Origin: a virus
Virus record (IMG/VR): IMGVR_UViG_3300026078_000018
Reading direction: 5' to 3' (one strand)
Length of the DNA stretch: 64,000 nucleotides
Shown piece after piece: positions 3,425 through 59,763 of this stretch (position 1 is the first letter of the stretch; every line of letters begins with the position of its first letter). Made by a program: the position numbers and the translations under genes. The notes beneath the pieces are model-generated. The model saw nothing but the letters and a program-made list of their open reading frames with translations, was not told the DNA's origin and made no database searches.

Positions 3425-3723
3425 TCACCTTTTTGTCGCGCGCAAGGCCCAGTGGGGCCGTGACCGGGCATGATACGAGGCTGTGCATCATCAACACGGG
3501 TGCTCCCGTGGGCAAGGCGCGCGTCAGCGCGCAAGGTCGCGTGGCTCCCGGGCACGCCCGGGGTGTTCGAGGGTGTCGGCTGCGGAACCACACGCTGGCG
3601 TGCGCGGGAACCGGGGCTTCGAGACCTAGAGCCTAGACCTTCTGCCCCGCGCTGGTCACAGGATCCTGTGACGCACACTCGCGAACACGAGTTCGGGATA
3701 ACCCGATGCAGAAAAGTTACCCC

Positions 3724-3749
3724 ACCATAGTGTCACTCGATGGTAGGGT
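3724..3749 (+). promoter_or_regulatory. operator-promoter upstream of the sigma gene
   Basis: ACCATAG-TGTCACT-CGATGGT overlapping -10 TAGGGT. Confidence 0.65.
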
Positions 3750-3882
3750 TCTGATGGGGATATTCTTCCCCGCACACACACCCCCGCAAGTCCGCGCGCC
3801 GCAACCAGCGGCGAGAGCGGCGAGACGGGGTTTCGCACCACCAAGCCACGCGACCTGGTTCCCACACGAAGGACACGCCGCC

Positions 3883-4524
3883 ATGCCCGCGATGCCGCGT
3901 ACCCAGAAACAGCCACGAATCCCCGCCCAGAGGCACCCCGAAAACAAGCCCCTGATCCCGCCGGAAGACGCCCAGAGACTGATCGCTGCTGCCCAAGACG
4001 GCGACCGGGAGGCCTTCGGCGAGCTCTACCGCGTCTACCGTGACAGGGTCTTCCGGTACATCTACTACCGCGTGTCCACCCGGGCCCTGGCCGAGGACCT
4101 CACCAGCGAAACCTTCATCCGGGCGCTGCGCCACATCACCACCTTCTCCTGGCAGGGCTGCGATTTCGTGGCATGGCTGTTCACCATCAGCCGCAACCTG
4201 GTGGCCGACTACTTCAAGTCCTCCCGGCACCGCATGGAGGTCTCCACCGGCGAGATGCTCGACTCCGACGAGGTCGAGGCCTCCCCGGAGGAGTCGGTGC
4301 TGGAGCACCTGTCCAACGAGGCCCTGCTGAACGCCGTCCACCGGCTCACCGACGGGCAGCGGGAGTGCATAAAGCTCCGGTTCCTGGAGCAGCTCACCGT
4401 GGCTGAGACGGCACGCGTCATGGACCTGTCCGAAGGCGCCGTCAAAACCCTCCAGTACCGCGCCGTCAGAACCCTGGGACGTGCCCTGAAAAAGGACGAC
4501 TTCGACATGGCCCTGGCCGCCTGA
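3883..4524 (+). CDS. bldN: ECF sigma factor, sigma-BldN/AdsA homologue
   Basis: RYIYYRV..AEDLTSETF.RALR.I.TF.WQG.DF.AWL.TI.RNLVAD.FKSSR.R.EV.TGEMLD and KTLQYRAVRTL match my recollection of Streptomyces BldN; start chosen from a GAAGGA RBS, an upstream start is possible. Confidence 0.85.
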   Translation: MPAMPRTQKQPRIPAQRHPENKPLIPPEDAQRLIAAAQDGDREAFGELYRVYRDRVFRYIYYRVSTRALAEDLTSETFIRALRHITTFSWQGCDFVAWLFTISRNLVADYFKSSRHRMEVSTGEMLDSDEVEASPEESVLEHLSNEALLNAVHRLTDGQRECIKLRFLEQLTVAETARVMDLSEGAVKTLQYRAVRTLGRALKKDDFDMALAA

Positions 4525-6464: not shown

Positions 6465-7358
6465 ATGGGGGATGATGTGACAGTGAGTTTCGAGTCGTTC
6501 GCGATCAAGCGTGACCTCGGTGCGTCGTTGAAGGCTGCACGGCTGGCTATGAAACCGACACTGTCGACGACGCGCGCAGCGGCCGCCCTCGGGATCAGCC
6601 AGGCCTCGGTGTCACGGATCGAGAACGGGAAGCAGCTCGTCAACAAGGATCAGCTGTGCCAGATGGCCAACGTCTACAAGGTGAGGACCGGCCAGCTGTC
6701 GCAGTGGCTCCGGATGCTGACCCAGGTGAACGCTCCCGACCAGTGGTGGCACGAGGAGCCCTACCGGAAGTGTTTGACCAAGCGGTACGCCGAGCTCATC
6801 GGGGTTGAGGATGCAGCTGAAGCACTGATGCTGCTGCAGCTCCAGGTGGTTCCTGGACTGCTACAGACGGCGGAGTACACCAGGGCTCTCCTGGAGGGAA
6901 GCCCGATCAGGTTGAGCGCAGAGGAGATCGACTCTCTGATCGAGGTCCGGCAGGTCAGACAGCAACGGCTCAGCTTGGACGCTGTACGCCCGCTGCAGGC
7001 GACGTTCATCCTGTCTCAAGCCGTCCTCGAAATGCGCTACAGCAGCGAGGAGGTTCACCGGGCGCAGATGCGGCAGCTCGACCTCAGGGCCAAGCAGGAC
7101 AACATCACGATCGTAATCCTTCCTTTCGATCGAATGATCGATCTAAATTCAGTGGATTTGTACGACTTGCCCGGTGGCGCAGACCCCGTTGTGTTCACCG
7201 AGCCGTTGATGACGAGTCAGATGGTGCAGACTATCGATGACGTCGAAAAGGTCAGAGGCATCATGTTGAAAGCTCAACAGCGTGCTCTTTCACCTGCTCA
7301 ATCGCAAACAGCTATTAGACAAAGAATGGATGGATCACATTATGCTCGACAGCAATGA
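6465..7358 (+). CDS. XRE-family HTH regulator with DUF5753 domain (Scr1-like)
   Basis: LGASLKAAR...ISQASVSRIENG; VVPGLLQTAEY; R..RQ..L. Confidence 0.9.
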   Translation: MGDDVTVSFESFAIKRDLGASLKAARLAMKPTLSTTRAAAALGISQASVSRIENGKQLVNKDQLCQMANVYKVRTGQLSQWLRMLTQVNAPDQWWHEEPYRKCLTKRYAELIGVEDAAEALMLLQLQVVPGLLQTAEYTRALLEGSPIRLSAEEIDSLIEVRQVRQQRLSLDAVRPLQATFILSQAVLEMRYSSEEVHRAQMRQLDLRAKQDNITIVILPFDRMIDLNSVDLYDLPGGADPVVFTEPLMTSQMVQTIDDVEKVRGIMLKAQQRALSPAQSQTAIRQRMDGSHYARQQ

Positions 7359-8533: not shown

Positions 8534-8619
8534 CTTCTCTACTGGTTTCATACACCAGTAAAAGACTATAGTGGTGTGTGAGGCGGGTCGTCCGTGCCCG
8601 CCCGGACGGAGGCCACACC

Positions 8620-8931
8620 ATGCAGCACCCGGACCTGAAGCAGATCCGCCGCTGGATCGACGGCGAGGACCCGGCCCCGGCGTTGAACGAGCTCTACAGG
8701 ATCGGCGAGGAGATCGGCAGGCGCCGCAAGGCCCTGCGCAAGCAGGCCGACGACGAGGGCAAGCGGATGAAGGCCATGGTGGAGCTGCTGTGGCGGCAGG
8801 GCATGGACAACCTGGCCGAGATCCAGCGGGTACTAGACGTCACCTACACCACCGTCGACAAGGAACTCACCGCCAAGGGGCTGGGGCCGCAGCGGCGCCC
8901 GAAGCGCGGAGAGACGACAACCGGCGACTGA
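8620..8931 (+). CDS. small HTH-like protein
   Basis: GGAGG RBS; LAEIQRVLDVTYTTV.KEL HTH-like; TATAGT upstream. Confidence 0.65.
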   Translation: MQHPDLKQIRRWIDGEDPAPALNELYRIGEEIGRRRKALRKQADDEGKRMKAMVELLWRQGMDNLAEIQRVLDVTYTTVDKELTAKGLGPQRRPKRGETTTGD

Positions 8932-8933
8932 CT

Positions 8934-8964
8934 CCTGTCCGGGCACCAACAGCTCCTGAGGAAG
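8934..8964 (+). promoter_or_regulatory. candidate late promoter CCTGT-N23-AAG
   Basis: Same motif recurs before several structural genes. Confidence 0.55.
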
Positions 8965-8999
8965 TAGGGAAACACCCCACCTACCTCAGGAGCCGTTCC

Positions 9000-9566
9000 A
9001 TGACCGCAGTACTCACCCGGAACACACAGCCGGGACCGCTGGTCCTGCAGCCCGCCGACGGCAACTACAACGACTACGTGGTGTGGCAGGGCGCCGGAGA
9101 TCCCGACGGACAGGACGTCCAGCTGGTCTCAGCCGAGGCAGTCCAGACCGTGCCGTTCCAACGGGCCGTGGCCCGGCAGCTACTCGTCGTCGAAGGCGAC
9201 GACGTCCCGGCCGTCGACCCGGCCGTTCAGGCCTATCTGGACCGGCAGGCCGCCATCGCCGAGGCCGCCCGCGCCCGCGCCGAAGCCGAACTCAACGACA
9301 AGATCGAACACACCGAAAACCGGGAACTGCACGGCCTGGGCTGTGTCGGCCCCGACGCCCGCGGTACCGGCACCTGCAACACGATGGTCAGCGTCTCCGG
9401 CAAGGACAAGGACAAGATCCCGCCGCTGTGCTCCCAGCACAAGCACCTCGCCTTGCACTACGTCGCCGAGGTCGTCGCCGACAACGACAAGGTCGACGCC
9501 AAGCCCGAACGCACCCGCTGGATCCGCACCACCATGGGCCCGCGCGAGAAGGCCCCCACCCAGTGA
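9000..9566 (+). CDS. hypothetical virion-region protein (C..C..C..H)
   Basis: AGGAG RBS; first gene of the structural block. Confidence 0.75.
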   Translation: MTAVLTRNTQPGPLVLQPADGNYNDYVVWQGAGDPDGQDVQLVSAEAVQTVPFQRAVARQLLVVEGDDVPAVDPAVQAYLDRQAAIAEAARARAEAELNDKIEHTENRELHGLGCVGPDARGTGTCNTMVSVSGKDKDKIPPLCSQHKHLALHYVAEVVADNDKVDAKPERTRWIRTTMGPREKAPTQ

Positions 9567-10048
9567 GCGCCGACTTCCGCGACACCGCACACCTGGTCAC
9601 CGGCACCCTGGACACCTCCGGCTACGGCGAAGGCGACCTGCGCGACGTCGCGCTGGTGTACAAGCACCAGCACCCCGCACCCGAGGCCGAACCGGCACCC
9701 GAGCCCGGTGCACCGGCCGACGACAACCTGACACCGGAGCCGCTGTTCACCCCCGACGGCGAGCCCACCGCCCAGGCAACGCCATCACCGAGGCCACCGA
9801 AGATCGGCGAGCAGGTGCTCGACACCGAGACCGGGATCGTCTCTGAGTTCGACGGCACCGACTGGGTCAAGCTGTCCCCGGAACCGGATCAGGAACCTCA
9901 GCCCGGCACCGAACCGGCTTCAGCAGCCGTCGAGATCACCCCCGTCGAAGCCCCGCCTGTTGACCAGACGGCCCGCGCTGGCAAGGAGAGCAAGCCCCCG
10001 GCGGGGGCGGCCACCAAGACGACGCGGCGCGGCAAGGCCGCCGGATAG
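9563..10048 (+). CDS. Pro/Glu-rich hypothetical protein
   Basis: GTGA coupling; VSADFRDTAHLV... Confidence 0.65.
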   Translation: MSADFRDTAHLVTGTLDTSGYGEGDLRDVALVYKHQHPAPEAEPAPEPGAPADDNLTPEPLFTPDGEPTAQATPSPRPPKIGEQVLDTETGIVSEFDGTDWVKLSPEPDQEPQPGTEPASAAVEITPVEAPPVDQTARAGKESKPPAGAATKTTRRGKAAG

Positions 10049-12808: not shown

Positions 12809-12991
12809 ATGCCCTACACCGCCACCGTCACCCAAAACAACGTCCTCATGCCCGACGGCAACCTGCACCAGACCGGCGACAAGGTACTGCTGTCCGACGA
12901 GCAGTACGAACAGATGGGGCCCGCGGCGCGCACCGCAGTGCTGTCGGACGTGACTGCGATCGACACTGAGACGACGGTGCCGGAGCTCTGA
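12809..12991 (+). CDS. 60-aa protein, stand-alone paralogue of the tailspike N-terminus
   Basis: M.YTATVT.NNV..PDGNLHQ.GD..LL.D..Y.QMG shared with the ORF at 13782. Confidence 0.85.
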   Translation: MPYTATVTQNNVLMPDGNLHQTGDKVLLSDEQYEQMGPAARTAVLSDVTAIDTETTVPEL

Positions 12992-12992
12992 G

Positions 12993-13718
12993 ATGAACGC
13001 GCCTCTGCCGCCAGGCCTGGTGGTGCCGGTCCGCGGCGCCGTCCAGCCATACCGGCTGCCTGTTCGGCAGGACTGGGCTGTCGCTACCGAGCGGCAGCGC
13101 AACTCCCAGGCGCTGTACCTGATCGGCGAGTGGTGCTTCTTCGCCCTCATGTGGCACCTGGAGGACTTCCAGAACGGCCTGGTGGTGCGGTGCCTGACCT
13201 GCTGGGGCCAGGACCCGGTGGCAGCCGCCTACGGACAAGGCAACCAAAACCGCTGCCCGTCGTGCTATGGCACCACCTTCGAGGGCGGCTACAAAGCGCT
13301 GATCATCCGCCCGGCCGCCTTTGGTGACACCGACGAGGGCGAGACCCGTACCTCTCGCGGCGTGGCCCGCGGCGGCGACATCACCGTGGAGAGCACCCCG
13401 GACTTCCGGGTCCGCTCCGGCGACTACGTGTTCCGGGCCAGCGGGGAGCGGTACTACCTGCGCGTTCCGGACCGCGTCACCGCCCGCACCGGCTTCGGCG
13501 CGCCGTACCAGTCCTCGGCCGCGATCGGCTACAACCACGCGCGCGCCGCCGACGAGGACCCCACCTCCCCGGCATACATGATCCCGCCGCCAGCTAACCG
13601 GTTGCCGCAGATCTTGAATGCGCCGCTGACACCAGGCGTGTTCGATGGCACCCCCGCGAACTTCTCCGCTTTCGAGATCGTCCGCGCGCCGCTGATCCCG
13701 ATGGCCGACCGGGCGTAG
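12993..13718 (+). CDS. putative head-closure/neck protein with CxxC..CxxC
   Basis: C..CW...CPSCYGT.F.GGY motif; position among neck genes. Confidence 0.6.
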   Translation: MNAPLPPGLVVPVRGAVQPYRLPVRQDWAVATERQRNSQALYLIGEWCFFALMWHLEDFQNGLVVRCLTCWGQDPVAAAYGQGNQNRCPSCYGTTFEGGYKALIIRPAAFGDTDEGETRTSRGVARGGDITVESTPDFRVRSGDYVFRASGERYYLRVPDRVTARTGFGAPYQSSAAIGYNHARAADEDPTSPAYMIPPPANRLPQILNAPLTPGVFDGTPANFSAFEIVRAPLIPMADRA

Positions 13719-13781: not shown

Positions 13782-15638
13782 ATGTCCTACACGGCCACCG
13801 TCACCGTCAACAACGTCGTTCTGCCGGACGGCAACCTGCACCAGGCAGGCGACTCGATCCTGCTCACCGACTCCGAGTACGCGCAGATGGGCTCGGCGCT
13901 GATCGCCGCGGTGCTATCGGGCGTAACCCCGGCCGGGGGCTCGCCAGTCGTCTACCCCAACACGGCCGGGATCGGGCAGGTCCCGGTCGGCGTCACCTCC
14001 ACCTCTGTGGCCTACGAATCTGTGATCAACGCAGGTCCGTGGGTGCACGACGTCCGCATGCACGGCGCCGTCGGCGACGGCCAGGTGACCATCGACGGCA
14101 CCACCACCGTCGGCAGCAACGTCATCACCTGTGCGTCGGGGCCCTTCCATCCCTCCGACGTCGGCAAGGCGATCCAAATCAAGGGTGCGCTCACCTCCGG
14201 CGCCACCACGCTGTGCACGACCATCACCGGGTACACCTCGGCGACGCAGGTGACGGTCGGCGCCAATGCCACAGCTGCCGTATCCGGTACCGCGCTGGTG
14301 ATGTGGGCCACCGACGACACCGCGGCGATCCAGGCCTGTATCAACGCGGCTTTCGCTTACGGCCAGGTCCACGGGGTCGGCATCATCTCCATTCCGCCGG
14401 GCGCCGGGCTCTTCTACGGCATCGCGGGCCCTCTGGTCGCCGGGGGCGCGACGGCCGCGAACGGCCAGCTGGTCATCCCCGTTCAGGCGGACACCGGCCT
14501 CAAGGTCGAGCTGATCTTCCTGGGGGTCACCGACGGCGGCACCACCCGGCACTGGCATCAGAAGATGCCGCAGATGTCCGGGTCCACGTTGGTCAGCTTC
14601 GGGGTTTTCGCCACCGCTACCGCCCAGACCGACTCGCTGACAGCCAGCGGTAACCCGGCGGTCATCTCTGGCCAGACCGGCGCCTACGGCTACGGCGGCA
14701 CCTCCCTGCTGTACAGCAACATCCTGGTCCGGCTCCAGAACCTGCAGATCTACAGCCCCCACTCGCTGAACGGCTGGACGTACGACGCGCTGAACTTTCA
14801 CGGGATTTCTGCCTGCGCGCTGGAGAACTTCGGCTACGGCACCACCGGGCTGTACAGCGCCGGGGACTTCTCCAACCCCAACGGCTTCTCTGCCGGGCTG
14901 TCCGTCGGCGTCATCCTGCCCTCGGCAGGCAACAACGACAACAACACATTGAGAAACGTGATCTGCCACGGCGGCTACACCCGCGGCATCTACCTCACCG
15001 AGCACACCGACTGGATCGGCGGAGTGGTCCTGTACTGCTGGTCCGGCATGGGTCTGATTGGCAACTACGACGACGGCGGAAGCGGCCACGGCAACCCCGG
15101 CGTCGGCGCCAGCCACGGCATCAACTTCACCCAGATCTCGATCGAGGGCTGCAACCAGGACCTGGAGGTCATCGGCGTCGGGCAGGCCGGTATCGGGCCA
15201 ATGGTCTCTGGCTACTTCGACACCGAGGGCGCCAGCGAGGTCCGCGGCCAGGCCGACGCTCTGGCCGCCGCCTGCGGCGAAGTTCACCTCAAGGGCAACG
15301 GCGGCACGCCGCCGGTGATCGACAACCCCACCAACTTGGCGATCGTCTGCGATTTCGAGTTCCCCGGCCCGGTCGCCAGCCCACCCGCAATCCCCATCAA
15401 CAACGCGCTCATGAACCCCTACGGCCGGTACGCGAATATCACTCTGACCGGCGGCACCGGCATCACATCCGTCCAGGTCAGCGGCATGATGGGCGGCGCG
15501 ACCGCGCCTTCACTGGGCAACTCGTACAGCCAGACTGCAGGCGTGCTGGCCGCGCCGGTCACAGTCCGGGTCGGACCGCAGGGCTGGATCAAGGTCAACG
15601 GCACCACAGCACCGACCGCCACCTGGGTGCTGGACTGA
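13782..15638 (+). CDS. beta-helix spike/fibre (pectate-lyase-3-like)
   Basis: DVRMHGAVGDG...DDTAAIQACINA...I.IP.G followed by beta-helix-like repeats. Confidence 0.8.
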   Translation: MSYTATVTVNNVVLPDGNLHQAGDSILLTDSEYAQMGSALIAAVLSGVTPAGGSPVVYPNTAGIGQVPVGVTSTSVAYESVINAGPWVHDVRMHGAVGDGQVTIDGTTTVGSNVITCASGPFHPSDVGKAIQIKGALTSGATTLCTTITGYTSATQVTVGANATAAVSGTALVMWATDDTAAIQACINAAFAYGQVHGVGIISIPPGAGLFYGIAGPLVAGGATAANGQLVIPVQADTGLKVELIFLGVTDGGTTRHWHQKMPQMSGSTLVSFGVFATATAQTDSLTASGNPAVISGQTGAYGYGGTSLLYSNILVRLQNLQIYSPHSLNGWTYDALNFHGISACALENFGYGTTGLYSAGDFSNPNGFSAGLSVGVILPSAGNNDNNTLRNVICHGGYTRGIYLTEHTDWIGGVVLYCWSGMGLIGNYDDGGSGHGNPGVGASHGINFTQISIEGCNQDLEVIGVGQAGIGPMVSGYFDTEGASEVRGQADALAAACGEVHLKGNGGTPPVIDNPTNLAIVCDFEFPGPVASPPAIPINNALMNPYGRYANITLTGGTGITSVQVSGMMGGATAPSLGNSYSQTAGVLAAPVTVRVGPQGWIKVNGTTAPTATWVLD

Positions 15639-15675: not shown

Positions 15676-16458
15676 ATGAGCCAGCTGTGGGTGCAAGCCG
15701 CCGGGCACGACTTCGGCGAGAACCCCTACGAGGACCCCGACACCGGCCTACACCTGCCAGTGCCAGGGCTGCACGATAAGCGCCACACGTCGCTGGTCCC
15801 GGTCGGCGTGCTGTCCGCGTACGCCGGGGACGAACGCGGGCGTGGCCGCGACATTGAGCGTGCACAGCGCGAGATGGGCGCGATGGCCGCGCACCCGGAA
15901 GAGGCCTTCATGGGCTGGCAGCGCAATCTCAGTCACACCCGCATGGCACCCGTGAAGATCATGCGGCATCCCAACGGTCTGATCCGGATGAGCCGGGGGC
16001 ACGAATACGTCCACGGCGCCCTGGGCATGGAGATGGACTCCCACCATCTGGAAGGATTCCACGCGCTGCCCACCGAGATCTCCGACATGCGCCACCCAGG
16101 CCGCACCGACCAACTGCCACCGCTGTACCACGGCACCTCGGTCGCCGGGCTGGAGCACATCCGGCCCGCCGTTCAGCACGGCGGCCTGGAGTACGCCCAG
16201 CTGCATTCCCCCGAGGCCGACCACCACTTCGCCTATGCCACCGCCAACATCAACGAGGCCAACAGCTACGCCCGAGCCCACGGCGCCATCCACGACGCCG
16301 AGCCGATCATCTACCACGTCCAGCCCCTCAGCAGGATCGAAGCCGACCCGCCCCACAACCCGGCCGACCACCTGAAGCTGAACGAGCGCATCGCCGACGT
16401 CCGCGACCCCGAAGGCTTCCGCGTCATCGGACACCACCACCCTGGCCCTGGCTGGTAA
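15676..16458 (+). CDS. leader + degenerate ParB-like domain + Arr-type ADP-ribosyltransferase
   Basis: LYHGTS...FAYAT...A.SYA...IIYHVQP...EADP...FRVIG; GGAGG RBS. Confidence 0.7.
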   Translation: MSQLWVQAAGHDFGENPYEDPDTGLHLPVPGLHDKRHTSLVPVGVLSAYAGDERGRGRDIERAQREMGAMAAHPEEAFMGWQRNLSHTRMAPVKIMRHPNGLIRMSRGHEYVHGALGMEMDSHHLEGFHALPTEISDMRHPGRTDQLPPLYHGTSVAGLEHIRPAVQHGGLEYAQLHSPEADHHFAYATANINEANSYARAHGAIHDAEPIIYHVQPLSRIEADPPHNPADHLKLNERIADVRDPEGFRVIGHHHPGPGW

Positions 16459-16468
16459 AACCCTGCCG

Positions 16469-16498
16469 CCTGTCCCCGGTTGGCGCCCGGCGTGCAAG
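16469..16498 (+). promoter_or_regulatory. candidate late promoter CCTGT-N22-AAG
   Basis: Start codon lies 7 nt from the start of AAG, compatible with a leaderless transcript. Confidence 0.55.
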
Positions 16499-16502
16499 AC
16501 AC

Positions 16503-16940
16503 GTGAAGACCCTCTGGCACCGGCATCCCGCCGTCCGCACCGGCGACAGGCTCACCCTCGGCGAACGCGCCGCCGACCGCATGCGCAACAGCATGGGGTC
16601 CTGGGCTTTCGTGTTCGGCGCGCTCGTGTTCCTTGGCATCTGGATGGCGATCAACGTCATCGCCGCCCGCGGCGGCAATGCCTTCGACGCCTACCCGTTC
16701 ATCCTGCTCAACCTCGTGCTCTCCTGTGTCGCCGCCCTGCAGGGCGCGATCCTACTCATCGCCGCCAAGCGCAGTGACCAGATCTCCTCCGAGCTGGCGG
16801 CCCATGACTACCAGGTTGACTGCGAGACCAGGCAGGCCCTTGATGACATGCGCGCCGACTACGCGGCGCTCGCCGAACAACACCGAGCCCAAGGCGAGCA
16901 GCTCGCACAGGTGCTGCAACTCCTGCAGGAGCGGCCGTGA
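16503..16940 (+). CDS. DUF1003 membrane protein (possible holin-like)
   Basis: GERAAD.....MGSW.F...W...N...FD.YPFILLNL.LS..AALQ...L. Confidence 0.85.
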   Translation: MKTLWHRHPAVRTGDRLTLGERAADRMRNSMGSWAFVFGALVFLGIWMAINVIAARGGNAFDAYPFILLNLVLSCVAALQGAILLIAAKRSDQISSELAAHDYQVDCETRQALDDMRADYAALAEQHRAQGEQLAQVLQLLQERP

Positions 16941-17632
16941 CCAGGCTGTGGGTGGAAGCCTCCTGGCTGACCGAGAAGCCCGGCGACGACTCCTGGGACG
17001 ATCACGGCTTCGGCCACGAGACCCGCGAGCAGCGCCGCGACCGGTACGTGCAGAAGGTCCAGGACATCCACGGCGTCGGCCGCGATACAGCGCTGAACGC
17101 CCTCAAGGCCGTCAGCGCACACCTGGACCCGGTCGGCGCTGGATTCGCCTCACAGCCCCGCCACTCGGAGAACGTCGACCCGACACTGCCCAAGCACCTG
17201 CTGGACCAGGAGATCTGGGCCCGCGCGCCGATCGCCGATGTCGACCTGCGTCACCCGGTCCACGCCACCCAGGGCTGGCTCAAGCGCGACCAGATGTTCC
17301 ACAACCTGTTCCACCCCGGCAAGAAGCCGCCCTACGACGACAACCTCACCGGCCACCCCGACGTCGACCCCGACCACTACCGCGACGAAGACGACGACGC
17401 CTACTGGGACTCCGACCACGGAGACCACCCCGCCTTCATCCGGCAGACCGACGGCTCCCACATTCTGCTCGACGGCCACCACCGCGTCGCCACCGACATG
17501 CTCATGGGCAGACCCACCACCCGCGGCCGGGTCCTGGACATCCGCCACCTCGGCAAGGAAGGCCGCTTCCGCGTAGCTGCGGGGGTTGTCGGTCCCCAAG
17601 CTACAGCCGGAATAGGGCCTGTTATCAGATGA
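16937..17632 (+). CDS. leader + ParB/Srx-like domain protein
   Basis: HATQ...PAFI......ILLDGHHRVA....G. Confidence 0.75.
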   Translation: MTRLWVEASWLTEKPGDDSWDDHGFGHETREQRRDRYVQKVQDIHGVGRDTALNALKAVSAHLDPVGAGFASQPRHSENVDPTLPKHLLDQEIWARAPIADVDLRHPVHATQGWLKRDQMFHNLFHPGKKPPYDDNLTGHPDVDPDHYRDEDDDAYWDSDHGDHPAFIRQTDGSHILLDGHHRVATDMLMGRPTTRGRVLDIRHLGKEGRFRVAAGVVGPQATAGIGPVIR

Positions 17633-18306
17633 CATCCCAGATCCTGCTGCCCGAGTTCCGGGTCTCCGACCACCCCGACCGGATCATCATCGTCTCGCCC
17701 GTCCTCACCGCGGCGCGCGCCCGCGCGCTCGCGAACGAGGCCGTGCGAATGGCCCGGCAGCTCTCCCCGAAGATCAACGGCGCCGGGGCGCGCCGACTGC
17801 AGCCGGTCTACGGCAAAGGCGTCGCCGGGATCCGCTGGGCCGACCCCTACATGTTCTACGTCGACCACGGCACGCAGCCGTTCACCATGTACAAGCTGGC
17901 AGGGAAGACCATCCCGATGTGGGTGGCCGACCCCGGCGGCTTCGAGCGCGAGCGCAACCCCAAGGCGAAGGTCCGCACCACCGCCGACGGCCGTGTCCAG
18001 GTGTTGATTTTCCGGCGGGTCGCCGCCCTCGGGCAGAAACGCCCCGACGGCAAGCCCGCGTCCTACCCGGGTGCGCCGGGCCGCATCAGCCGCCGCGAGG
18101 CCGCCGCGCCCTGGACGACGCCGGGCAAGCGCGGTGGTGCGATCGCTGCGGGCAACGGCGGCGTCCGCTGGCGCCATTCCGGCATCGTCGGCCGCCAGTT
18201 CATGAACCACTCCCTGGCGATCGCCGCCCAGCGCGCCGGGGTCATCGCCGACCGTGCCTACCTCGCCGACGTTGGCTGGCGCACCCGCACCGGCGAGGCA
18301 CGATAA
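17629..18306 (+). CDS. basic neck/tail-completion protein (HK97 gp10-like)
   Basis: Y..YVDHGT, WRH.G....FM motifs; ATGA coupling. Confidence 0.65.
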   Translation: MTSQILLPEFRVSDHPDRIIIVSPVLTAARARALANEAVRMARQLSPKINGAGARRLQPVYGKGVAGIRWADPYMFYVDHGTQPFTMYKLAGKTIPMWVADPGGFERERNPKAKVRTTADGRVQVLIFRRVAALGQKRPDGKPASYPGAPGRISRREAAAPWTTPGKRGGAIAAGNGGVRWRHSGIVGRQFMNHSLAIAAQRAGVIADRAYLADVGWRTRTGEAR

Positions 18307-18409
18307 GGCAAGCTCCCCCACGTCGCATTCCGTGAGGGAGCTCTCGCATTCAACTCTGGTGGCCTGCTGTCCGCAACCACCGTGCGCCTCCCAATCCACG
18401 GAGGTGGCC

Positions 18410-19180
18410 ATGAGCCTGTTGTGGATTGAAGCGGTGCAGCTGAGTCCGCGCGCGGGTTCCTTGTCTGCGTGGGACAAGGAGACTCACCCGTTCGTACACC
18501 AGGAGCACATGCTCCCCGAAGATCAGCTGTCGCAGGCCACTGAGCATCTCTGGCCGCTGCTTCGACCGGGCACGGAGACCTGGGAGCGGGTACATCGGTT
18601 GAAAGAGTCGATGACCGCCCACGGCGGATACTCCCCCGAGCGCCACGGCGAGCTGCATCTGCTGCGCAATGAGCCGAATCTGCGGCTGCACGCCGAACAC
18701 CCGGACTGGCCGAAGACGGGTGCCGGGAACCACGGAGACCATGTCGTGATGGCCCTGAACCTCAGTGGACACACGCGCCACGTTCCTGTCACGGTCCATG
18801 ACGCGAACGATCCAGGTCGCCCTCGTTACTATCACGGCACGTCAAGGGAACTCCCCGAGGGCGAACTGCTGTATTCGAACGGCCCTCGCCCCGGCTGGCC
18901 CAGCTCTCCCGAGCACACCTACGCCACGACCAGCCGCGACGGAGCGGAGCGATATGCCGACGCCGCACACGACACCTTCGGCGGCCGTCCCCGCGTCTAT
19001 GAGGTCCACCCGATGGACCCGTCCGATCTGGAGGCAGACGACAGCGAAGGCGGTGGGGTCGACTCACTGCGCAGCCGTGCCGGGTGGGAGATCGGCCATG
19101 AGGTGTGTAAGCCGCGCAGGCTGCACGACTTCCTCAACGGCGAAGAAGAGGACGACGAGGACGATGAGGGCTGGGACTGA
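18410..19180 (+). CDS. leader + ParB-like domain + Arr-type ADP-ribosyltransferase
   Basis: YYHGTSRELPEGELL...HTYAT...A..YA...GRPRVYEVHP...EADD...SLRS...EV; N-terminal LKESM..HG...GNH...A....G...VPVTV. Confidence 0.78.
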   Translation: MSLLWIEAVQLSPRAGSLSAWDKETHPFVHQEHMLPEDQLSQATEHLWPLLRPGTETWERVHRLKESMTAHGGYSPERHGELHLLRNEPNLRLHAEHPDWPKTGAGNHGDHVVMALNLSGHTRHVPVTVHDANDPGRPRYYHGTSRELPEGELLYSNGPRPGWPSSPEHTYATTSRDGAERYADAAHDTFGGRPRVYEVHPMDPSDLEADDSEGGGVDSLRSRAGWEIGHEVCKPRRLHDFLNGEEEDDEDDEGWD

Positions 19181-19833
19181 TGTCTTACGTGACCTTGGTC
19201 AAGACGACCGTGGTGAACGCGATCCTCGGGACCTTCGACACCCAGTACCCGGTGCAGCAGTTCCAGGGCGTGCGCGCGTCGATCGAATATCCGATCAAGG
19301 AGCAGGACTACCCGGGGATCTGGGTCGACTACGACGATACCGGCGATCTGACGCGCGCCGGGATCGCGCACCTGGAGCACCACGACCCCAGCACCGGCCT
19401 GCTGGTGCCGGAGTTCACGAGGTGGAGGTTCGCGGGCGCGGCCACGTTCACGATCGTGGCCATGACCTCGCTGGAGCGAGACCGGTTGTTCGACGAGCTC
19501 GTCAACGTGATCGCGTTCGGGTCGCAGGACCCGGTGCGGGGCCGGTTCCGGCAGTTCATCGACGCGAACCCGTACGTGATCATCGAGGCGAACTACGACA
19601 CCCTGACCGTCGGCGGGTCAGCCGCTTCCCCGGGAACACCGTGGGGAAGCGACGAGATCGTGTATGAGCGCACCGTCAGTCTGGACATGATCGGTGAGTT
19701 TTTCCCGGACATGGCCACCGGGACGCCGGTGCTGCTGTCGCGGGTTCAGATCGATTTCCCGGAGCCGACGCTGCCTGGCGATGCCCCGCTGATCGGGGAG
19801 CCCTCCGGGCCCGGGGTGACCAACTGGCATTGA
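19180..19833 (+). CDS. tail terminator/completion protein
   Basis: Directly upstream of the sheath; YP....YP.I.V and ERD.L.D motifs. Confidence 0.65.
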   Translation: MSYVTLVKTTVVNAILGTFDTQYPVQQFQGVRASIEYPIKEQDYPGIWVDYDDTGDLTRAGIAHLEHHDPSTGLLVPEFTRWRFAGAATFTIVAMTSLERDRLFDELVNVIAFGSQDPVRGRFRQFIDANPYVIIEANYDTLTVGGSAASPGTPWGSDEIVYERTVSLDMIGEFFPDMATGTPVLLSRVQIDFPEPTLPGDAPLIGEPSGPGVTNWH

Positions 19834-19879: not shown

Positions 19880-19908
19880 GGGGGAGACCTTCGAGCCCGG
19901 GAGCGGTG

Positions 19909-21477
19909 ATGCCCGACTTCAGCACATACCAGCCGCCGGGTGTGTACGTCCAGGACACGTCCACACCCGTGGTGACCCCTACCGGGTCAGCGGCGTCGCT
20001 GGTGACGATCGTCGGCCCTGCTTCCGGCTATGAGACAGTCACCGAGGCGGTGGCGCTGCACGTCTCGCCAGGGGTAGGGCTACAGAACCGCGGTGTGTTC
20101 ACCGCCGCGGTGACCGGTCCCCCAGCGATCGCCGCGCCGGTGGTGACGACCCAGGCAGGGCTGGTCCTGACGCCTGGGGTGGACTACTCCTTCGTCTCTG
20201 ACACCTCCGGCGGGGGCGGCTCGACGAACGCCGTGGCCATGCTGGTGCGGCTGCCGTCCGGAGGCCCGACCACCCCCACACCGAATGGCGCGAACGAAGG
20301 CGACATCGTCACCGTCACCTACTCTTTCGCCGACGCCGACTACTACACCCCAACCCTGTTCACCGCCTACGACCAGCTGGCGGCGACCTACGGCCCGGCG
20401 CTGGCGACAGTGGCCCCGGCAGATCCGAACACCTCGCAGGTGACCTCGCCGATCACCTACGCCGCGAAGATCGCGTTCGAGAACGGGGCCGGGCAGATCC
20501 TGGCGCTGGCCACCAACCCGGCCGACGGAGACTTCCGCACCCAGCTGCAGGTGGCGTACACGAAGCTGCTGGCCAACCCCAGCGTGTCGATCATCGTGCC
20601 GGTGCTTGCCGACGGGCTGGTGTACGGCAACTCCACTTCGGACGCGCACACCGCTTCCGCGGTGGAGAACATGGTCTCCGACGTGCGGCTGCACTGCGAC
20701 AATTCCGCAGTCAACGGCTACGGCCGCATCGCCATCGTCGGTGTCGACCGCAACTACGACAGCACCACCGAGCCGTTCCCGGCGCTGGCCAGGTTTGCCG
20801 GGGACAAGCGCGTGGTGCTGGCGTACCCGAACCGGTTGCTGGCCAGCAACCCGGCGACCGCCACCACCATGGAGGTCGGCGGCATGTACCTGGCCGCCGC
20901 CTATGCCGGACAGCTGGCGTACAACCCCGTGGCCCGCGGCCTGACCCGCATGACCGTCCGCTCCTTCACCGGCATCCCCCCGGTGGTGCAGCAGGCGATG
21001 ACGCTGACCGCCAACAACGCGATGTCCCAGGCCGGGGTCGCCGTCACCGAGCTCAACCGGCTGGGCCAGCTGGTGGTCCGGCACGGTGTCACCACCGACC
21101 CGTCCAGTCTGATCAACCGCGAGATCTCGCTGGTGCGGATCGCCGACACCCTGTTCCAGCTGGTGCAGTCGGGCCTGGACTTCGTAGGCCTGATCGGCCA
21201 GCCGATCACCGCCGACATGCCCACCCAGGTCAAGGGAGCCGTCTCCACGATCTTGGAGAACGCGCGCCTGTCCTCGGTGATCCAGGCCTGGGGGAACCTG
21301 CTGGTCCGGCAGCAGAGCCTGCCCAACGGCGACCCCACCGTGATCGAAGTCATGTTCGCATACGCCCCGGCGGTGCCTTTGGACTATATCGAAGTCTCCT
21401 TCGCCATCGACCTGACCACCGGCGATCTCACCAACTCCACACTCCCGGCCCAGTCCTCCACCGGCACCACGCCGTGA
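19909..21477 (+). CDS. contractile tail sheath protein
   Basis: Y.PPGVYV N-terminus; VRHGVTT..REISLVR.AD; V.F.Y.P..PL.YI.V C-terminus. Confidence 0.9.
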   Translation: MPDFSTYQPPGVYVQDTSTPVVTPTGSAASLVTIVGPASGYETVTEAVALHVSPGVGLQNRGVFTAAVTGPPAIAAPVVTTQAGLVLTPGVDYSFVSDTSGGGGSTNAVAMLVRLPSGGPTTPTPNGANEGDIVTVTYSFADADYYTPTLFTAYDQLAATYGPALATVAPADPNTSQVTSPITYAAKIAFENGAGQILALATNPADGDFRTQLQVAYTKLLANPSVSIIVPVLADGLVYGNSTSDAHTASAVENMVSDVRLHCDNSAVNGYGRIAIVGVDRNYDSTTEPFPALARFAGDKRVVLAYPNRLLASNPATATTMEVGGMYLAAAYAGQLAYNPVARGLTRMTVRSFTGIPPVVQQAMTLTANNAMSQAGVAVTELNRLGQLVVRHGVTTDPSSLINREISLVRIADTLFQLVQSGLDFVGLIGQPITADMPTQVKGAVSTILENARLSSVIQAWGNLLVRQQSLPNGDPTVIEVMFAYAPAVPLDYIEVSFAIDLTTGDLTNSTLPAQSSTGTTP

Positions 21478-59328: not shown

Positions 59329-59763
59329 ATGGCCACATCTCCTGACGCGCTGCCCACCGTCGGCGTGCTCCGCGAGCTCTTCCGCAACCTGCAGCCCTGG
59401 CGCTCCGCCGCCATCGAATACGGCATCGATTCCCTCACCGGCCCCGACGGCACCGAATACGCCCTCGTCGACATCGAAGCCCTCTACGCGCTGCGCCACC
59501 TGCTGTCTATGCGCCAGCGCCAGGCCATCGAGGCCTGCCTGGTCGCCGACCAGCGCGAGGTCGACGTCGCCATCGCCATGAGCGTCTCACCCACCAACCC
59601 CGTCGCGTCCTACGCCACCCAGGGCATGCGCCGCCTGCTGGCCATGGCCGCGGAACAGCGCGCCGGACGTGATTCCCGCAGCCTCGGCCCCGAACCGCTG
59701 CCGTCCCGGCGTGAGGCCGAAGCCATGGCCGCCTGGAGCAGCCCGGAAGCGATCGCCGCATGA
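59329..59763 (+). CDS. sigma-70 region-4-like HTH protein
   Basis: LSMRQRQAI.......REVDVA.AM.VS....V..YA..G..RL. Confidence 0.7.
   Translation: MATSPDALPTVGVLRELFRNLQPWRSAAIEYGIDSLTGPDGTEYALVDIEALYALRHLLSMRQRQAIEACLVADQREVDVAIAMSVSPTNPVASYATQGMRRLLAMAAEQRAGRDSRSLGPEPLPSRREAEAMAAWSSPEAIAA

Follow-up and report, generated by a model that had tools for sequence, protein, structure and literature searches.

In this study, we analyzed a stretch of 64,000 nucleotides from an uncultured virus (IMG/VR record IMGVR_UViG_3300026078_000018; this whole stretch is called the window), in which three genes of the late structural block, here named P1, P2, and P3, encode proteins that begin with the same short N-terminal leader, M-[ST]-x-[LV]-W. 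This leader exists as a conserved element, is selected at the peptide level, is independent of the protein fold, and is only required where the N-terminus is free. It can be regarded with high confidence as a peptide signal specific to the N-terminus, not as a strand of the fold; whether it also serves as a tag that addresses the proteins to the virion is, in our judgment, an evenly balanced question. Proteins P1 to P3 of the window are named independently of the coliphage P1, which is always referred to as phage P1 in the following.

The original prediction, which was made from the letters of the window, had described three open reading frames (ORFs) at positions 15676, 16937, and 18410 that start with MSQLWVQA, (M)TRLWVEA, and MSLLWIEA, respectively, and all three were found as described. 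A search of all six frames of the window with [MVL][ST].LW[VI][EQ]A resulted in exactly three matches, all at the starts of P1, P2, and P3, against a chance expectation of about 0.002 based on residue frequencies and a mean of 0.005 in 200 shuffles. Whole-protein searches revealed nine relatives of P3, six of P2, and four of P1, all of which start with M-[ST]-x-[LV]-W, while their overall identity goes down to 30–37%. M1 and W5 were invariant in 10/10 sequences of the P3 family and 7/7 of the P2 family (the window's own proteins included in both) as well as in 4/4 P1 homologs, and only small residues (S, T, G, or A) occurred at position 2. Since these residues are fixed while their synonymous codons vary (AGC, AGT, TCC, or TCG for Ser2; CTG, TTG, CTC, CTT, or CTA for the leucine), selection acts on the leader peptide. 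GTG and TTG starts also bear the leader.

Further towards the C-terminus, the leader is less uniform, since positions 6 and 7 differ greatly and position 7 can be occupied by Q, T, E, R, N, S, H, or K, with position 5 always being W. Three leader classes, MTLVWS-I, MSLLWRTA, and MSLLW[IV][EQ]A, could be distinguished among the clade; E or Q at position 7 in every tagged gene was only seen in the lineage of the window, and relatives display LWRTA, LWKNA, or VWS[EQ]I. In the P2 family, a second conserved aromatic motif (AWW) often follows the leader. A Sec/Tat-like hydrophobic core, a lipobox, or a twin-arginine motif was not found in the leader sequences. The window ORF at 59760 (MSRVW...) encodes a DUF7236 protein, and its likeness to the leader was taken as chance. 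A second conserved terminal motif appears at the other end of the P1/P3 family, where the C-termini form an acidic, His-rich tail that, in 12 of 16 proteins, has a Trp among its final three residues, e.g., DEGWD, GHWH, HGDW, and GPGW (window positions 16440–16458 and 19142–19180; homologs in L001–L023); the acidic tail of P3 itself ends in GWD.

Structure prediction with AlphaFold indicated that the leader is not part of the folded domains. In the model of P3, which was built from an 11-sequence alignment, residues 1–10 revealed a mean predicted local distance difference test (pLDDT) score of 31, and residues 1–9 of P2 remained below 50 (overall range 31–45), while the domains of both models were predicted with confidence (predicted template modeling score of 0.81 for P2). 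In neither of the two models was the leader docked onto the protein's own domain. In the P3 family, the distance between W5 and the first conserved domain motif varied from 48 to 68 residues.

Further evidence came from natural fusion proteins that unite two or three modules of the P2 type, namely L022_7287 (593 aa), L023_7287 (451 aa), and L013_6841 (385 aa), whose modules are 60–80% identical to stand-alone genes found elsewhere. At the fusion junctions, the leader was gone and the residues following it were kept, so that a stand-alone MSTLWAQ-AMAWF corresponds to EDTMSRE-AMAWF, and MSALWTQA-AWEQD to HMRRFS-AWEQD or RMQRTG-AWEQD (hyphens mark the junctions). Because internal modules thus lose the leader yet keep the residues after it, the leader behaves as a signal specific to the N-terminus. 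A wider comparison of the P2-family profile with 1.84 billion cluster representatives, in which 27 matches below 1e-30 were scored, agreed with this, as the leader was present at the start of 19/21 N-terminal modules and of 0/6 internal modules located in proteins of 744–2293 aa (Fisher p = 9e-5); these representatives are not phylogenetically independent, so that the fusion junctions represent the cleaner evidence. In the six internal modules, the profile match began only at position 9–19. Leader and module can also be separated by additional sequence, with the leader of P0027 located at residue 1 and its module starting at residue 108, and with 8–12 extra residues between the leader and the AWW motif in P0026, P0029, P0031, and P0037. 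The leader therefore stands as the separate N-terminal element that was originally proposed, conserved in homologs, unstructured in the models, and missing from modules that have become internal. The possibility raised along with that proposal, that it might simply be the first strand of a shared fold, is contradicted by the pLDDT values of 31–45, the variable spacing, and its absence from internal modules.

P1 and P3 consist of two domains each, while P2 is a single-domain protein. The original domain assignments hold, namely a putative ParB-like domain followed by an Arr-type ADP-ribosyltransferase (ART) in P3, a ParB/Srx module with DGHHR in P2, and a degenerate ParB-like region plus an Arr-type ART in P1. 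P1 was found to be a diverged paralog of P3 with the same C-terminal domain. Not upheld was the statement that the three proteins are otherwise dissimilar, as P1 and P3 are paralogs and all three appear to harbor ParB/Srx-related domains. For P3, comparison with Pfam Arr-ms (PF12120) resulted in E = 7.6e-4 and 20.1 bits versus a gathering threshold of 25 bits, and a precomputed PF12120 annotation exists for P3 homologs. Its C-terminal half matched the rifampin ADP-ribosyltransferase Arr (2hw2) using Foldseek (E = 2.9e-4, prob 1.0), and the P3-family profile retrieved the same structure from the PDB (E = 1e-5) in an alignment that pairs the HGT, Y-x-T, and acidic motifs, i.e., YHGT, YAT, and v-E-x-D-P of the family with YLHGT, IYIT, and IEDDP of 2hw2. 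H142, Y171, and T173 are invariant in our set A2; the catalytic residues of Arr-ms are H19, Y49, and D84. The fusion to a ParB-like domain suggests a target other than rifamycin for the predicted Arr-type domain.

Similarities of the ParB/Srx-type domains were weaker. Foldseek assigned P2 to sulfiredoxin (prob 0.97) and the ParB N-domain (prob 0.77) with E-values of only 0.02–0.3, and relatives of P2 gave weak matches to ParBc_2 and DUF1015; DGHH does not vary within the family, and the Arg behind it as well as HNLFHPG are nearly invariant. The N-terminal domains of P1 and P3 showed weak ParB/Srx matches (prob 0.66–0.8, E of 0.1–0.5) and no DGHHR, while GYSPERHG is conserved. Overall, the tagged proteins form two clusters, ParB-like plus Arr and the DGHHR module, with few outliers, namely the ART-only protein L024_8573 with a weak DUF3990 match and some small proteins with a weak or no domain match. 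The cargo is polymorphic with respect to its copy number, its fusion state, and its presence, yet its predicted domains are those of just two superfamilies, ParB/Srx and Arr-like ART; it is less diverse than proposed earlier and no freely exchangeable set of unrelated domains.

Both domain types also occur in a different context, as the DGHHR ParB/Srx module and Arr-ms were found together with GNAT, ART-PolyVal, NUDIX, and 2H phosphoesterase domains in proteins of 1473–2293 aa, and the giant proteins holding the DGHHR module possess no leader. This is in line with the earlier proposal that the cargo consists of putative NAD- or nucleotide-type enzyme domains; they are encoded in the late structural block and recur in giant polyvalent proteins. 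One such arrangement was observed on an 82-kb viral contig (L025, 160–9725), which harbors two consecutive giant ORFs, one with a length of at least 1396 aa, for which no family matched, and a second of 1799 aa with GNAT, the DGHHR ParB/Srx module, NUDIX, and 2H/LigT; the neighbors of this giant protein had no PHROG match.

In order to describe the genomic context, 20 distinct syntenic loci were mapped on conserved backbone genes. All leader genes were confined to one slot upstream of the tail sheath gene with the order p2791 - A2806 - [0-4 leader genes] - N2819 - [0-3 leader genes] - T2748 - sheath. The number of leader genes per locus ranged from 0 to 5, with five in a row in L024, and at least one was present in 19/20 loci, which extends the motif to related phages as had been suggested. 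Five complete genomes were searched with a pattern limited to ATG starts and to Leu or Phe as residue 3, and within this scope no genuine leader ORF was found outside the slot; matches to MSLVW and MSFVW in complete relatives were discarded as Ser/Trp-rich, antisense-looking frames that are not genes. Comparison of the profiles of the three backbone genes A2806, N2819, and T2748 with the PDB resulted in no match, so that the original term "neck genes" for the surroundings of the slot reflects only their position. Accessory genes of the slot were noted at L001 8494–9225, L003 7728–8531, L007 6160–7953, L040 5480–7921, and window 16503–16940; they encode ThyX or ThyA, membrane proteins of the DUF1003 family, and WhiJ-like regulators that occur in sets of HATPase_c_2, HTH_31/DUF5753, and DUF397 and are typical of Streptomyces.

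Based on these features, M-[ST]-x-[LV]-W-x-x-A may represent a short, unstructured docking peptide specific to the N-terminus and followed by a variable linker. It would be borne by late-expressed enzymes of the ParB/Srx type and the Arr type (NAD-using), whose genes are located between putative head-completion genes and the tail sheath gene, and it would bring each polypeptide into the assembling virion, either the procapsid or the neck, so that the tagged enzymes could enter the next host with the DNA. A loading signal predicts one tag per polypeptide, since genes that stand alone would each need their own, a fusion protein would need only the first one, and the N-terminus would have to be free; with one tag each, the tagged set would behave like an unbundled polyvalent protein. 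Address to the virion is partly supported by our analysis because the leader is separable, conserved, N-terminal, and found on polyvalent-type domains in the late structural block. Virion loading, injection, and a host-directed enzymatic role are inferred. The complete proposal, i.e., a protease-site-free virion tag M-S-x-L-W in a clade with no cultured member, present once per polypeptide, with polyvalent effectors unbundled into small injected enzymes, seems to us tentative and falls a little short of an even chance.

Several observations weigh against an address to the virion. The tagged proteins are acidic, while the internal proteins of T4 are basic, the leader displays no conserved protease site, and no receptor for it was identified. 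P2-type homologs of the MTLVW lineage begin with MLVS[ML]AAWW and have no Trp5. The slot also houses genes that are surely not for virion proteins (ThyX/ThyA, DUF1003, HTH/DUF397 regulators), so that location represents weak evidence for a virion role. Searches of phage records yielded no cultured member of the clade. Finally, all tagged proteins derive from two related families, and their common ancestry accounts for the occurrence of the tag but not for its being strictly bound to the N-terminus.

Among other explanations, the leader could be an N-terminal signal with another purpose, e.g., for stability or degron timing, for docking to a membrane or host factor, or as a handle for a phage chaperone, which we consider a rather unlikely but serious alternative. 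Dependence on the N-terminus fits such a signal equally well, and the slot also contains non-structural genes. Methionine aminopeptidase removes the initiator Met in front of a small residue 2, so that this Met is probably lost here and S-L-L-W exposed. Such a signal is disfavored by the missing Sec/Tat-like core, lipobox, and twin-arginine motif, and restriction of the tag to structural-block genes, with domains recurring in polyvalent proteins, points to delivery with the DNA instead.

An inherited extension of one paralogous enzyme family with a role in enzymatic activity or oligomerization, e.g., by docking in trans into the ParB/Srx or ART domain, would not represent an address. It would be in agreement with the two linked clusters of ParB/Srx and Arr domains that hold all tagged proteins and with the AWW motif behind the leader in the P2 family. 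We regard it as improbable, as the models showed no docking of the leader on its own domain, internal modules and those of giant proteins manage without it, 8–100 inserted residues part leader and module in P0026, P0027, P0029, P0031, and P0037, and the leader also occurs on the ART-only L024_8573 and on small proteins with no recognized domain. Least probable of all, and hardly credible to us, is an effect on translation initiation, in which the mRNA or the nascent peptide at the first codons, not the mature protein, would account for the conservation. Loss of the leader at fusion junctions, where no initiation site exists, and the common Shine-Dalgarno/start context of P1 and P3 would agree with it. 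The residues are, however, fixed despite synonymous codons and the use of both Ser codon families, GTG and TTG starts carry the leader as well, and late genes with the same Shine-Dalgarno context lack the peptide, e.g., the L040 gene at 12688.

As a precedent for the virion-addressing tag, the capsid-targeting sequence (CTS) of phage T4 is an N-terminal tag on the internal proteins IPI-III and Alt (PMC3012670). Similar to the CTS, where diverse phage-encoded defense or takeover proteins from a variable locus, including an ADP-ribosyltransferase, have nothing conserved but a short N-terminal leader (PMC3012670; PMC5512222), the leader described here is common to divergent proteins of one phage, with three in the window and one to five in each of 19 related loci. 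In contrast to T4, it reveals no sequence similarity to the CTS and no conserved (L/I)xE site, belongs to another phage lineage, and is combined with acidic cargo; moreover, neither a gp21-type protease nor a scaffold core was identified for this phage in the 64-kb window. The T4-type cleavage assumed in the original prediction could not be maintained, since the P3 position of the putative Glu-specific site is Trp (residue 5) and not Leu or Ile, and position 7 is variable, with E/Q limited to the lineage of the window. Its lineage, the shorter unrelated motif, the missing protease site, and the link to polyvalent proteins set this leader apart from T4-type leaders.

For DarB of phage P1, the first 30 residues are sufficient for capsid localization and include no defined cleavage motif (PMC9024508), and DdrB, which has a ParB-like domain, becomes part of the head of phage P1 (PMC5512222). 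Common features are thus an N-terminal signal and a ParB/Srx-family domain among head-packaged proteins; the Dar signal differs in that just one protein, of 250 kDa, carries it, while here the motif recurs on several small paralogs, and no homology of the tagged proteins to Dar proteins was detected. The same domain repertoire as in the window proteins is found in polyvalent proteins (Iyer, Burroughs, Anand, de Souza, Aravind 2017), which, if phage-encoded, have been argued to be packaged in the capsid and injected (Iyer et al. 2017; PMC5512222). Here, by contrast, the domains are split over one to five small genes, each with a leader, and the giant proteins have none. MuF (SPP1 gp7-like) domains were searched for in the tagged proteins using Pfam and PHROGs, with no match. 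In work by Jamet et al. from 2017, MuF polymorphic toxins of temperate phages are said to combine a constant, virion-associated N-terminal part with variable C-terminal enzyme or toxin domains in the head module. This general architecture is similar, while the constant part of MuF proteins is a folded domain of several hundred residues. In the case of Arr (PF12120; 2hw2), the fold and the positions of the H-G-T, Y-x-T, and acidic motifs agree; the domain here differs in being phage-encoded, located behind a ParB/Srx-like domain, and, in the window protein, scoring under Pfam's gathering threshold. No account of the M-S-x-L-W motif, or of any capsid tag of actinophages, was found by searching the literature in a limited library, in agreement with the novelty claimed at the outset.

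The window belongs to an uncultured phage of the Streptomyces type, has a GC content of about 67% and a contractile-tail module, and its proteins were found on contigs of about 153 kb. Comparison of the region with cultured phage records at the DNA level resulted in no match, and DNA and tblastn searches of these records with the region, P2, P3, and N2819 gave none either. Only the sheath and T2748 retrieved cultured phages, namely distant myoviruses of Rhodococcus, Gordonia, and Mycobacterium, with about 30% identity of the sheath (gene 19906–21477) to those of Rhodococcus phage E3 and Mycobacterium phage Myrna; in phage Finch, one of these distant myoviruses, the annotation of the corresponding slot was uninformative. 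An ortholog of P3, starting with MTLVWSQI, is encoded in an assembly of Streptomyces griseoaurantiacus (GCA_042742255.1) on the contig JBHYLR010000017.1, which has a length of 151.6 kb, and other relatives are located on IMG/VR and metagenome contigs of 154–160 kb. Five of the relatives' contigs were rated 100% complete, two of them with terminal repeats. The clade consists of actinobacterial (Streptomyces-associated), myovirus-like phages of about 155 kb.

Features of the tagged genes and their surroundings are listed in Table 1. The block has one orientation, tight spacing, and overlapping stops and starts, e.g., between the DUF1003 gene and P2, forming an uninterrupted late block in which no internal promoter or terminator signal was found. 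As stated originally, the tagged proteins are rich in His, with 10.4% in P1, 7.8% in P2, and 8.2% in P3 versus 0.8–2.3% in neighboring structural proteins. Shared upstream DNA, reported earlier as ACGGAGGTGGCsATGAGCC, is real for both P1 (15676) and P3 (18410) but represents just a strong Shine-Dalgarno sequence plus start and Ser codons; since untagged genes of relatives have similar ones, a special regulatory element was rejected. With respect to base composition, P3 shows a third-position GC (GC3) of 0.77 versus 0.88–0.92 in its neighbors, which may reflect a more recent acquisition or relaxed selection.

Table 1. Tagged genes of the window, their leader codons, and anchor genes of the slot (one strand, 5' to 3').
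Feature	Position	Strand	Description
A2806 (phrog_2806), upstream anchor of the slot	12993..13718	+	four invariant Cys, CxxC...CxxC
Shine-Dalgarno GGAGGTGG + spacer, common to P1 and P3	15666..15675	+	
P1	15676..16458	+	260 aa; leader MSQLWVQA, degenerate ParB-like region, Arr-type ART (YHGTS ... FAYAT ... IEADP)
P1 leader codons, 8 residues	15676..15699	+	
DUF1003 membrane-protein gene between P1 and P2	16503..16940	+	no leader, outside the tagged set
P2	16937..17632	+	231 aa, GTG start; leader (M)TRLWVEA, ParB/Srx module with HNLFHPG and DGHHR
P2 leader codons, GTG start	16937..16960	+	
N2819 (phrog_2819), conserved backbone gene	17635..18306	+	flanked by leader genes in all related loci
P3	18410..19180	+	256 aa; leader MSLLWIEA, variable linker, ParB/Srx-like domain, Arr-type ART
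P3 leader codons	18410..18433	+	
T2748 (phrog_2748), downstream anchor of the slot	19180..19833	+	directly 5' of the tail sheath gene

Some further observations concern the surrounding genes. The invariant cysteines of the phrog_2806 protein suggest a zinc ribbon in a conserved protein of the structural block. Next to it, a 60-aa ORF (12809–12991) duplicates the first approximately 50 residues of a 618-aa, pectin-lyase-like beta-helix protein (13782–15638, phrog_32881; MPYTATVTQNNVLMPDGNLHQTGD vs MSYTATVTVNNVVLPDGNLHQAGD), and a 185-aa protein of L001 matches both, so that this pair may represent a second shared N-terminal module in the block. Just upstream of the structural block, the window harbors genes for an ECF/sigma-70-type sigma factor and an HTH_31/DUF5753 regulator (3706–4524 and 6465–7358). 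Between 8571 and 10048, the listed long ORFs 8571–9566 and 9083–10048 are probably not genes, as the GC3 frame plot indicated three shorter ones at about 8578–8931, 8950–9566, and 9600–10048, in agreement with small genes in relatives. ORF 8571–9566 was accordingly rejected as a capsid gene; comparing it with PHROGs, Pfam, the Atlas, and phage records also gave no match.

If the leader is indeed a virion-addressing tag, the principle of pre-packaged and injected enzymes known from T4 and phage P1 would extend to actinobacterial phages by means of an unrelated, very short signal with no obvious cleavage site, and a simple sequence rule would allow listing of the injected arsenal of this clade. 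The small tagged enzymes would then be evolutionarily linked to giant polyvalent proteins, with ParB/Srx modules and Arr-like ADP-ribosyltransferases acting as first-minute effectors against Streptomyces-type hosts, and the 8-residue tag would offer a portable handle by which cargo could be brought into the particles of Streptomyces phages. Even if loading proved to be wrong, a five-residue N-terminal motif that is conserved more strictly than the catalytic domains behind it calls for an explanation.

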